From a virus: a DNA stretch of 57,084 bases. A model generated the notes under the pieces. It worked only from the letters and a program-made list of their open reading frames with translations. It made no database searches and was not told the DNA's origin. Shown piece by piece: positions 17,057-18,916 of this stretch (positions are counted from its first letter, which is position 1; each line of letters starts with the position of its first letter). The DNA lies in IMG/VR virus record IMGVR_UViG_3300010262_000001, positions 1 through 57,084 of that record. The stretch is one strand, 5' to 3'. Position numbers and translations under genes: made by a program.

Positions 17057-17119
17057 AAAAAATAAAGATTTAGGGGGTGTAACTGTTAAAGAAAAATTAT
17101 AAAACATTATAAAAGCCTA

Positions 17120-17278
17120 CTATTTTTTAGTAGACTTTAGAAATAAAGAAATTGATTTATCTAATAGTTTGGACATTGGTACTCCAGTTTCTTTAGAGTA
17201 TTCTTTAAGTTCTTTCCATAACTCTTTATCAATAGCGTTAGAAATTCTAACTCTATTTGTTAGTCCATATTTATCCAT
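17120..17278 (-). CDS. Ribbon-helix-helix (CopG/Arc-like) protein, 52 aa
   Basis: MDKYGLTNRVRISNAIDKELWKELKEYSKETGVPMSKLLDKSISLFL RHH pattern; ATG 17278 after GAGGTGA SD (ORF-track start 17311 unsupported). Confidence 0.6.
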   Translation of the reverse strand: MDKYGLTNRVRISNAIDKELWKELKEYSKETGVPMSKLLDKSISLFLKSTKK

Positions 17279-17311
17279 AATAATCACCTCAAATATATTA
17301 TAATATATCAA

Positions 17312-17347
17312 ATAACTACTTGCAACTACTGGTAGTTATGATATAAT
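17312..17347. promoter_or_regulatory. Palindrome plus extended -10 between the divergent RHH and tnpB genes
   Basis: ATAACTAC (17312-17319)/GTAGTTAT (17332-17339) with internal AACTAC repeat; TGATATAAT at 17339-17347, 20 nt before the tnpB SD. Confidence 0.5.
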
Positions 17348-17366
17348 AATATTAGGAGGTGAGATT

Positions 17367-18515
17367 ATGAAAAAAGGATTTACAGTTAGATTATATCCAA
17401 CAGAAGAACAAGAGATATTAATGAGAAAACATATAGGCTCTCAAAGATATATTTATAACTGGGGATTAGCTAAAAATAAGGAGTTGTATGAATTAGAACA
17501 AAAGAAATATTCTACTACTGATTTAGGGAAAATACTTACTCAAGTTAAAAAAGAAGAAGAGTTTAAGTGGCTTAATGAAGTATCTAATGCAACTCTTAAA
17601 GAAGCTTTAAGAAATTTAGATAAAGCTTATAAGAAGTTCTTTAAAGAAAAGAAAGGTTTTCCTAAGTTCAAAAGTAAAAAACATTCTAATGCTACTTTTT
17701 ATAGTAGATACGATAAATTAAAGTTTTATAATAATGGAGCAGTAAATTTAGAGAAAATAGGAAAAGTAAAATTTAAATCAAGTTATAAAAATATAGATTT
17801 TACTACTATAACTAAATTTTCTAATCCTACAGTTACTTTCAATAATAGATGTTGGATATTAAATTTTACTATAGATATTGAACCTATAATAAACAAACTT
17901 GAGGATAAGGTTTTAGCTATTGATTTAGGCATTAAGCAATTAGCAATATGCAATATAGAAGGTCTAGATATTAAGAATATTAATAAGACCAGAATAGTTA
18001 AAGATTTAGAGAAGAAATTAAAAAGATTACAAAGACAATGTTCAAAAAAATATATTATGAATAAAAAAGGGGGGAGTTACCAAAAGACTAAGAACATTGC
18101 AAAACTTGAATTAAAGATTAAAAAGCTTCATAGTAGACTTAAAAATATTAGAAATAATCATGTACATCAAGCTACTTCAAAACTTGTGAGAGCCAATGCA
18201 AGATTAGTAGTGATGGAAGATTTAAAAGTTTCTAATATGATGAAAAATAGACATTTAGCTAAAGCCATAGCACAACAAGGTTTTTATAAATTTATAGAAC
18301 AAATGAAATATAAATGTGCTTTAAACGGGATTAAATTTATACAAGTACCTACTTTTTATCCTTCAAGTAAAACTTGTAGTTGTTGCGGACATATAAAGAA
18401 AGATTTAAAACTTTCTGATAGAACCTATAAATGCAACAATTGTAATTTTATTTGTGATAGAGATAAAAATGCTACTTATAATTTAGCTAATTATGGTTTA
18501 AGTTTATCACTTTAA
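17367..18515 (+). CDS. tnpB: TnpB (IS605 OrfB-family RNA-guided RuvC endonuclease)
   Basis: N-terminal YPTEEQEILMRKHIGSQRYIYNWGL; RuvC triad AIDLGIK (D186), VVMEDLK (E284), CDRDKNATYNL (D366); zinc finger CSCCG...CNNCN. Confidence 0.85.
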   Translation: MKKGFTVRLYPTEEQEILMRKHIGSQRYIYNWGLAKNKELYELEQKKYSTTDLGKILTQVKKEEEFKWLNEVSNATLKEALRNLDKAYKKFFKEKKGFPKFKSKKHSNATFYSRYDKLKFYNNGAVNLEKIGKVKFKSSYKNIDFTTITKFSNPTVTFNNRCWILNFTIDIEPIINKLEDKVLAIDLGIKQLAICNIEGLDIKNINKTRIVKDLEKKLKRLQRQCSKKYIMNKKGGSYQKTKNIAKLELKIKKLHSRLKNIRNNHVHQATSKLVRANARLVVMEDLKVSNMMKNRHLAKAIAQQGFYKFIEQMKYKCALNGIKFIQVPTFYPSSKTCSCCGHIKKDLKLSDRTYKCNNCNFICDRDKNATYNLANYGLSLSL

Positions 18516-18688
18516 AGATATTCTTAAATTGGGGAATCGTTACACCCTACTTATTGCTAAGATAAGCAAAGTCTATGGAGTGCTATATAAACCAAAGTAG
18601 CTTAGGCAAAATGGGGCAACTATGAAGTAGAAAAGAAACAAAATCTCTAATTTATAAAGTTTTATAAGGTTTTGGTAACGGAATATTT
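18440..18688 (+). ncRNA. Candidate TnpB omega-RNA (reRNA) scaffold; boundaries approximate
   Basis: Position (3' end of tnpB into the right end) is where omega-RNAs are encoded; local hairpins such as CTTAT..ATAAG and TTATAAA..TTTATAA; no ORF. Confidence 0.35.
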
Positions 18689-18916
18689 GTGGCAAGAAAT
18701 ACATTGAAGGATTTAAATAATCATTTATTTGAACAATTAGAAAGATTGAATGATGATGAGATACAAGGAGAGAAATTTAAAGAAGAAGTTGAAAGAGCTA
18801 GAGCCATGGCAAGCATAGCTACTAAAATAATTGAAAATGGGAACTTGGTTTTAAGAGCTAAGAAAGTTATGTACGAGCAAGGTCAGGAAGAAGTTCCTAC
18901 TATGTTAGAAGGTTAA
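18689..18916 (+). CDS. Hypothetical phage protein (GTG start, no SD)
   Basis: 75-aa ORF ARNTLKDLNNHLFEQLERLNDDE...; no purine-rich SD in the 20 nt upstream. Confidence 0.5.
   Translation: MARNTLKDLNNHLFEQLERLNDDEIQGEKFKEEVERARAMASIATKIIENGNLVLRAKKVMYEQGQEEVPTMLEG

Follow-up and report, generated by a model that had tools for sequence, protein, structure and literature searches.

A transposase-less IS607-family TnpB element with an Arc-like repressor gene separates a Shine-Dalgarno sequence from its start codon in a phage-plasmid of Clostridium perfringens

Introduction

The TnpB proteins of the IS607 family are guided by RAGATH-18-derived right-end element RNAs (reRNAs, or omega-RNAs), as reported by Ren et al. 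(Cell Res 2024, PMC11061315), and the structure of one of them, ISFba1 TnpB, has been solved (PDB 8IAZ). In that study, RAGATH-18 is found only alongside IS607 TnpB, the transposase TnpA is present at 80% of the loci, and the target-adjacent motif (TAM) is 5'-AGGAG in 18 of 22 strains and 5'-GAGGG in 4 of 22. In the case of ISFba1, every single change in the TAM abolished cleavage. The main text of Weinberg 2017 holds nothing on RAGATH-18. The locus described here is located in the virus record IMGVR_UViG_3300010262_000001 (57,084 nucleotides, hereafter the window), a complete 57-kb record with terminal repeats that represents a Clostridium perfringens phage-plasmid. An element composed of an Arc-like ribbon-helix-helix (RHH) repressor gene, a tnpB gene, and a reRNA scaffold is situated between a Shine-Dalgarno (SD) sequence and the start codon of a 75-residue phage gene. 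This element is a transposase-less, Arc-bearing member of the published IS607/RAGATH-18 TnpB family.

Other described systems share parts of this architecture. TnpB-driven homing is reported to be a cut-and-copy process that maintains IS605 and IS607 elements (Meers et al. 2023, as cited by later work). Arc-like RHH open reading frames (ORFs) have been noted in IStrons (Zedaveinyte et al. 2023/2024, 10.1101/2023.11.20.567912), and Arc proteins bind and repress a bidirectional transposon promoter, according to chromatin immunoprecipitation sequencing and reporter assays in which elements of "arc and tnpB alone" are among those tested (Moon et al., bioRxiv 2026, 10.64898/2026.09.24.754181). Meanwhile, a putative archaeal RHH/MazE-TnpB toxin-antitoxin pair is characterized by a rearranged catalytic site, an upstream co-directional RHH gene, and an immobile locus (Altae-Tran et al. 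2023).

Insertion Site and Borders of the Element

In the window, the ssb gene (16592-17026) is followed by a conserved hairpin and then by TTTAGGGGG (17069-17077). The overlapping sequence AGGGGGTG at 17072-17079 is an SD sequence without a usable start codon after it, and the 75-residue ORF opens 1.6 kb later at a GTG (18689) with no SD sequence in the preceding 20 nt. The uninterrupted form of this site exists in three relatives. The two C. perfringens plasmids pCQ92 (NZ_CP143535.1) and pZ1323HCP0073-3 (NZ_CP148603.1), both 55-57 kb in length, match the flanks at approximately 94% and lack the 1.6 kb in a PLSDB search; the phage phiCp-D matches both flanks and lacks approximately 1.6 kb in a megablast search against GenBank phages. 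The empty sites are taken from these two collections. A search of IMG/VR with the TnpB protein gives one distant match at 35% identity, and a search with the 75-residue protein gives matches of at most 61% identity, which are of no use for defining an empty site.

The empty site of pCQ92 reads GATTTAGGGGG/AATATTTGTGGCAAGAAATA, within the longer sequence ...AAAGATTTAGGGGG AATATTT GTGGCAAGAAATACATT..., and presents an uninterrupted GGGGG-7 nt-GTG arrangement. The left flank of the window up to 17077 and the right flank from 18682 are identical to pCQ92 letter for letter; therefore, the insert corresponds to 17078-18681, a length of 1604 bp. A GG dinucleotide is present at both junctions (...GGGGG/T and ...AACGG/A) with no further target duplication, so the borders are ambiguous and can slide by 2 bp. 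In the empty sites of all three relatives, the start codon is located 7-8 nt after TTTAGGGGG, and the homologues of the 75-residue gene retain their intact SD sequence. Since the GTG already exists in the empty site of pCQ92, it was not created by the insertion.

The three empty relatives show directly that 17078-18681 is an insertion. An indel by itself has no direction, and the opposite order of events, in which phiCp-D, pCQ92, and pZ1323HCP0073-3 lost an ancestral 1.6 kb by precise deletion, is very improbable. Such a deletion is contradicted by the recurrence of the unit, with the same termini, in genomes and contexts that are unrelated, by junctions that fall at the TAM and the reRNA end of the family, and by the uninterrupted form, which is a normal SD-spacer-start arrangement in three diverged relatives. 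Precise excision would, moreover, be this element's own mobility reaction run in reverse.

An earlier note on this DNA had recognized the SD sequence without a start codon after ssb and the GTG without an SD sequence, for which the predicted pairing with the anti-SD sequence is indeed only -3.5 kcal/mol. It had proposed that an RHH and TnpB element without TnpA landed between the two and that insert-free relatives should be compared; this comparison, carried out here with pCQ92, upholds the proposal. The borders given there, 17085-18688, are both 7 nt too far to the right. Likewise, an empty site exists as predicted, and its junction is TTTAGGGGG/AATATTTGTGG instead of GGGGGTGTAACT/GTGGCAAG. 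The divergent 52-residue RHH gene named in the same note is present, and its inclusion within the element, which the note had treated as a point of possible failure, is borne out by the copies described below.

Copies of the Element in Other Genomes

A unit of arc, tnpB, and RNA with 84% nucleotide identity over window positions 17073-18682 is found in a Sarcina metagenome-assembled genome (L005). There it lies close to where a Cys-rich (ferredoxin-like) ORF ends (3' side), a context unrelated to that of the window. The RHH gene is inside the indel relative to pCQ92 and inside the element shared with L005; since the unit recurs with unchanged ends in unrelated surroundings, this gene belongs to the element. 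Arc-less copies of 1425-1427 bp with the same ends exist in another Sarcina metagenome-assembled genome, twice in Paraclostridium ghonii, and in C. tetani plasmids. The left-end motif AAC(A/T)GTTAAAG follows the G-run by 8-10 nt in the window and in L004, L005, L006, L117, L127, and L195, and the right end ...TTTTGGTAACGG is common to more than 20 copies. Judged by this recurrence in other genomes and contexts, the element is mobile as a unit.

More distant copies (L126, L127, and L173, with 46-65% TnpB identity) keep the divergent RHH gene. In L167 and L168, which have a homologous right end, a gene with MerR-type helix-turn-helix (HTH) and Resolvase domains, the serine transposase of IS607, is located directly upstream of tnpB. 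In the window, no ORF for a serine-recombinase TnpA exists inside the element, neither a Resolvase-type nor a Y1-type (Y1_Tnp) transposase is matched anywhere in the 57-kb genome, and the element DNA is present in that genome as a single copy without a second one. The window copy is thus a non-autonomous derivative, without TnpA.

Several further copies differ in their composition. A C. tetani plasmid (NZ_CP115449.1, L195, locus 1150-2610) and four sibling plasmids contain a solo tnpB copy of the same subclade with 77.7% nucleotide identity, situated between GGGGG and an ATG 6 nt past the right end; the analysis covered the junctions of this element. In L164 (approximately 6800-8378 of IMGVR_UViG_3300031760_001028 / Ga0326513_10002185), a distant relative with the same right end and 38% TnpB identity, arc or tnpA is replaced by a small XRE-type HTH-like ORF that is co-oriented with tnpB and overlaps its start region. 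This ORF is a third kind of small DNA-binding partner among these elements. On two P. ghonii contigs (L119 and L120), orphan pieces of the right end/reRNA, 67 and 97 nt long, apparently lack a complete element around them; they may be what is left of decayed copies, or guide-RNA remnants that stand on their own. A group I intron or IStron was considered as an explanation of the long spacers upstream in L004 and L006 and dropped, as no Rfam intron is matched.

TnpB Protein and Family Assignment

The closest solved relative of the window TnpB is the ISFba1 TnpB (8IAZ, E 3.6e-66). The residues D186, E284, and D366 align with the catalytic D194, E290, and D371 of ISFba1, forming an intact RuvC triad, and a CxxC...CxxC zinc finger is present. 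A nuclease-dead TnpB-like repressor (TldR) is ruled out, as all three catalytic residues are present. The protein is 49% identical to the ISWco TnpB of the GAGGG-TAM clade. Of the residues of ISFba1 around the TAM, the contact K83 is conserved in the window TnpB; opposite K80, N121, and N122, the window protein has A, D, and K, respectively, in the author's reading of the alignment, and these replacements fit a TAM different from that of ISFba1. TnpB genes are common in phages, with homologues in 413 phage records, none of them more than 60% identical to the window TnpB.

The assignment to IS607 is made because RAGATH-18 scores above its gathering threshold, ISFba1 is the best PDB match, the identity to ISWco is 49%, and relatives carry serine recombinases.

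Guide RNA Scaffold and Predicted Guide

Downstream of tnpB, 166 nt of structured non-coding DNA form the right end of the element. A full-length match to Rfam RAGATH-18 (RF03064) is located at 18572-18633, with 58.1 bits against a gathering score of 44.9 (E 2.4e-10), and RAGATH-18 is likewise matched downstream of tnpB in L004-L006. The alignment of 18 copies (RNAalifold) yields 29 pairs, 12 of which show compensatory changes. The closing helix is formed by CGTTAC (18538-18543) and the terminal GTAACG (18675-18680), and this pairing therefore explains why the right end is so conserved.

In the GAGGG clade, the reRNAs end in ...GGCAACGG or ...AGTAACGG directly before the guide; ISWco ends in ...TTCTTGGCAACGG, and ISCco and ISFba2 end in ...TTTTCAGTAACGG (Ren et al., PMC11061315). 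The window reRNA ends in ...GGTTTTGGTAACGG, which resembles ...GGCAACGG. In the published constructs, the guide is placed immediately after the scaffold (Ren et al., PMC11061315). Because published guides directly follow the scaffold end, the guide of the window is predicted at 18682-18701, the first bases outside the element.

The predicted guide matches the empty site next to GGGGG at 20 of 20 positions in pCQ92, 19 of 20 in pZ1323HCP0073-3, and 8 of 20 in phiCp-D. Within the window, no further match exists at up to three mismatches. Filling the site puts AACGG, and not a TAM, in the five positions ahead of the target, so the filled site would be protected. As a homing target, phiCp-D was considered and rejected on account of its 12 mismatches in 20.

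The catalytic triad and zinc finger listed in the earlier note agree with the ISFba1 alignment, and its hairpin-rich DNA encoding an omega-RNA is substantiated by the covariance-model match. For a right end at 18688, it had also taken the guide to be the first nucleotides of the interrupted gene: the origin in the gene start region holds, and the sequence does not, as it starts with AATATTTGTGG and not GTGGCAAG.

An SD-like TAM and Placement before Start Codons

In 11 copies, the 5 nt to the left of the element are GGGGG (four), GGAGG (four), GAGGG (two), and AGGGG (one), all ending in GG, as the right end does; GGGGG occurs in the window, L005, L006, and the C. tetani plasmid. These left-flank motifs are SD cores. 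In the window, GGGGG, a motif of the same type as the published TAMs, is both the putative TAM and the SD core of the 75-residue gene, whose ribosome-binding site (RBS) is now 1.6 kb from its GTG.

The same placement is found across the family. Of 19 independent right flanks, collected by pattern from metagenomes, viral contigs, and genomes, 17 have an ORF start 5-12 nt past the right end; a start here means an ATG, GTG, or TTG that begins an ORF of 50 residues or more. Such a start is found at 6% of random positions in the same loci (binomial P approximately 3e-19 for the 19-copy set), and five copies added from a sample of 400 genomes plus a plasmid bring the count to 21 of 24. The TAM of the family is SD-like, and the placement between an SD sequence and a start codon is a consequence of this that holds as a rule across the family, not an accident.

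At seven of the eight sites with both flanks known, the predicted SD pairing with the 3' tail of 16S rRNA is weaker once the site is filled: -9.7 to -12.3 kcal/mol for the reconstructed empty state against approximately -3.3 to -7.6 kcal/mol; the values for the window are -9.9 and -3.5 kcal/mol. At the eighth site (L173), the predicted pairing is barely altered (-6.7 to -5.4 kcal/mol). On these predicted energies, the 75-residue gene probably loses most of its translation. The right end of the element was considered as a substitute SD sequence and rejected, given a duplex energy of approximately -3.5 kcal/mol and the explanation of the terminal GTAACG by the reRNA closing helix.

The connection between the TAM and the SD sequence is not drawn in the literature searched. 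Ren et al. (PMC11061315) never use the terms Shine-Dalgarno, ribosome or RBS, or start codon, and do not tie the TAM to the SD sequence. Full-text searches of the searchable library return no paper that links the two: TnpB, AGGAG, and "ribosome binding site" occur together in no paper, and IS607, TnpB, and Shine-Dalgarno occur together only in a single study on TldR and flagellin, as preprint and in its published form. The SD-like TAM might further represent an evolved targeting strategy that silences downstream translation while transcription continues, with guides that cover initiation regions and with use as a gene drive or incompatibility weapon in phage-plasmids; the chance of this broader proposal is put slightly below even.

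The arc Gene and the Shared Promoter

The small protein encoded opposite to tnpB matches Pfam RHH_3 (E 6.6e-15) and PHROG 3180, "Arc-like repressor" (E 7.9e-17); a sequence search against the PDB gives nothing significant. In the 88-bp intergenic region between arc and tnpB, a promoter scan places a single TTGCAA (17320-17325) as the -35 element of both genes. On the plus strand, it is followed by a 16-nt spacer and TG-TATAAT, with the TATAAT at 17342-17347, and on the minus strand by a 17-nt spacer and TATAAT, each a match to the consensus only. The shared TTGCAA sits in the repeat ATAACTAC-TTGC-AACTAC-TG-GTAGTTAT (17312-17339), which covers the -35 element and the spacer. In the five arc-bearing copies compared, the TTGCAA is kept and is flanked by inverted half-sites that differ between copies. 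By analogy with the described Arc systems, the repeat is a putative Arc operator, as the differing half-sites suggest, and Arc presumably represses its own promoter and that of tnpB.

The arc-less copies retain the TTGCAA -35 element within an inverted repeat (CTTGTA...TACAAG; L006, 2925-2990). They could be regulated in trans by the Arc protein of another copy.

The presence of an RHH gene beside tnpB also raises a quite different explanation, namely an IS200/IS605 element moved by a Y1 HUH transposase, or an RHH/MazE-TnpB toxin-antitoxin pair of the archaeal type. The TnpB Pfam domains are common to IS605, RHH proteins are frequent antitoxins, and a hypothesis of RHH-TnpB toxin-antitoxin pairs has been published. 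An IS605 origin is contradicted by RAGATH-18, which is specific to IS607 TnpBs, by a G-rich rather than T-rich TAM, and by the transposases, since Y1_Tnp has no match in the genome and the transposases of relatives that share the right end are serine recombinases. A toxin-antitoxin pair is contradicted by the canonical, not rearranged, triad, by the mobility of the element, and by the orientation of arc, which is divergent with a palindromic promoter and not upstream and co-directional. Such an explanation is scarcely credible.

Proposed Mechanism

The element is, with high confidence, a non-autonomous IS607-family member of the RAGATH-18/GAGGG-TAM clade that inserted 3' of GGGGG and for which a homing mechanism is proposed. 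In this mechanism, the tnpB promoter would transcribe tnpB, the reRNA, and approximately 20 nt of flank, giving the guide AATATTTGTGGCAAGAAATA, and processing would yield the reRNA with its 20-nt guide. The TnpB-reRNA complex would then cut co-resident relatives that contain GGGGG and the guide sequence, that is, an empty site as in pCQ92, and recombinational repair from the filled copy would copy the element in. Movement to a new site would require an IS607 serine recombinase in trans, acting via a GG crossover. Simultaneously, Arc would bind the palindrome over the shared -35 element and hold the expression of tnpB and arc low.

Several points weigh against this interpretation. Cleavage and the processing of the reRNA are inferred, as are the binding of Arc and the loss of translation. 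The phage contains no transposase and no second copy, and present mobility is unproven. The phage evidently tolerates the insertion, and the 75-residue gene may be dispensable or translated otherwise. Furthermore, GGGGG is not among the two published TAMs, and the only evidence for activity on GGGGG comes from four natural insertion sites.

The same features have been considered as the outcome of co-option, in which the TnpB-reRNA-Arc module would be no purely selfish passenger and would work for the phage-plasmid, as a weapon or a device of incompatibility that destroys or converts siblings with the empty site, with downstream early genes under the Arc-controlled promoter. All 20 guide positions agree with the empty site of pCQ92, a real sibling plasmid, tnpB has its own promoter and is co-oriented with downstream early genes and the phrog_36 transcriptional regulator (19656-20210), and the genome is unusually rich in homing nucleases. 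However, ordinary selfish homing predicts every one of these features equally well, an identical architecture occurs in bacterial chromosomes before unrelated genes, and the closest relatives are without the element. Co-option and plain selfish homing are inseparable on present data, and co-option is regarded as unlikely.

Feature Coordinates and Neighbouring Genes

Table 1. Positions in the window of the element, its parts, and the adjoining sequences.
Feature	Position	Strand	Description
Former SD core / putative TAM GGGGG	17073..17077	+	adjoins the left end of the element
Whole element (arc + tnpB + reRNA)	17078..18681	+	1604 bp, non-autonomous, IS607-family
Left-end sequence TGTAACTGTTAAAGAAAAATTATAAAAC...	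17078..17111	+	conserved among copies
Terminator-like hairpin of the arc transcript	17112..17138	-	11-pair stem and T-rich tail
arc	17120..17278	-	52-aa ribbon-helix-helix (Arc-like) repressor, divergent from tnpB
Bidirectional promoter	17297..17347	both	one TTGCAA (17320-17325) as -35 for both genes; promoter scan
tnpB	17367..18515	+	382 aa; Pfam HTH_OrfB_IS605, OrfB_IS605, Cas12f1-like_TNB
reRNA (omega-RNA) scaffold	18507..18681	+	RAGATH-18 core 18572-18633
Predicted 20-nt guide AATATTTGTGGCAAGAAATA	18682..18701	+	first bases outside the element; spans the GTG
Interrupted 75-aa phage gene	18689..18916	+	PHROG 2044, E 7e-29

Two further nuclease genes are located close to the element. A NUMOD4/HNH_3 homing-endonuclease-like gene (15918-16595) lies between an AbrB-like gene and ssb; it is absent from phiCp-D, in which ssb directly follows the AbrB gene, and two small ORFs occupy this place in pCQ92 and pZ1323HCP0073-3. 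It is a second mobile-nuclease indel, approximately 0.5 kb upstream of the TnpB element. Directly after the 75-residue gene, an HNH_3 endonuclease gene (18923-19546) is conserved in phiCp-D and both plasmids and, in contrast to the TnpB element and the NUMOD4/HNH gene, is a fixed resident of this module. The window and pCQ92 share the sequence GTCCTACCCCCATAGGGTAGGAC for the 23-nt hairpin that follows ssb (window 17034-17056; L001 2995-3017), and phiCp-D has its exact reverse complement, GTCCTACCCTATGGGGGTAGGAC. Between relatives, then, the hairpin is inverted, or its loop, which amounts to the same. This hairpin is scored as terminator-like on the minus strand only.

Significance

Taken alone, the element is one further copy of a characterized family, in a position that is usual for that family. 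Its surroundings form an unusually clean natural set in sequenced C. perfringens phage-plasmids, with a filled site, an exact empty site matching at 20 of 20 positions, and a site with 12 mismatches. Since all three kinds of site are sequenced, TnpB homing between phage-plasmids is directly testable. With AGGAG, GAGGG, and, presumably, GGGGG as TAMs that are SD cores, these elements habitually cut genes off from their RBS, a link unstated in the searchable literature. For annotation, orphan SD sequences and SD-less genes are to be expected on either side of tnpB. The SD-core TAM also bears on the fitness cost of these elements and on the use of such nucleases in bacteria, where each RBS is a potential TAM.

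Comparison with Known Systems

The ISWco, ISCco, ISFba2, and ISFba1 systems (Ren et al., PMC11061315) share with the window element a TnpB of approximately 380 residues with the same domain order and the same triad, a RAGATH-18 core downstream of tnpB, a scaffold end of ...(G/C)(T/C)AACGG before the guide, and a G-rich motif of the TAM type ending in GG. However, TnpA is missing here and an opposite-strand arc takes its place, the putative natural TAM is GGGGG, which is outside those tested there, and the host replicon is a C. perfringens phage-plasmid.

The Arc transposons and IStrons (Moon et al., 10.64898/2026.09.24.754181) likewise have an RHH gene of approximately 50 residues inside the transposon, divergent from tnpB, together with two opposed promoters and inverted repeats over the -35 and -10 elements. 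Those transposons belong to the IS605 family, whereas the backbone here is IS607/RAGATH-18 with an SD-like TAM.

Transposase-less TnpBs borne by phages are also found in the Staphylococcus Twort-like phages and the Clostridium botulinum phage c-st; these are approximately 50-52% identical to the window TnpB and annotated as "transposase", but their hosts and insertion sites are different. As in TnpB homing (Meers et al. 2023, as cited by later work) and in phage homing endonuclease genes, the guide corresponds to the empty site beside the TAM, and element-free relatives are therefore the predicted targets. Unlike the described homing, its occurrence between phage-plasmids is here a prediction, for which pCQ92 provides the matching empty site.

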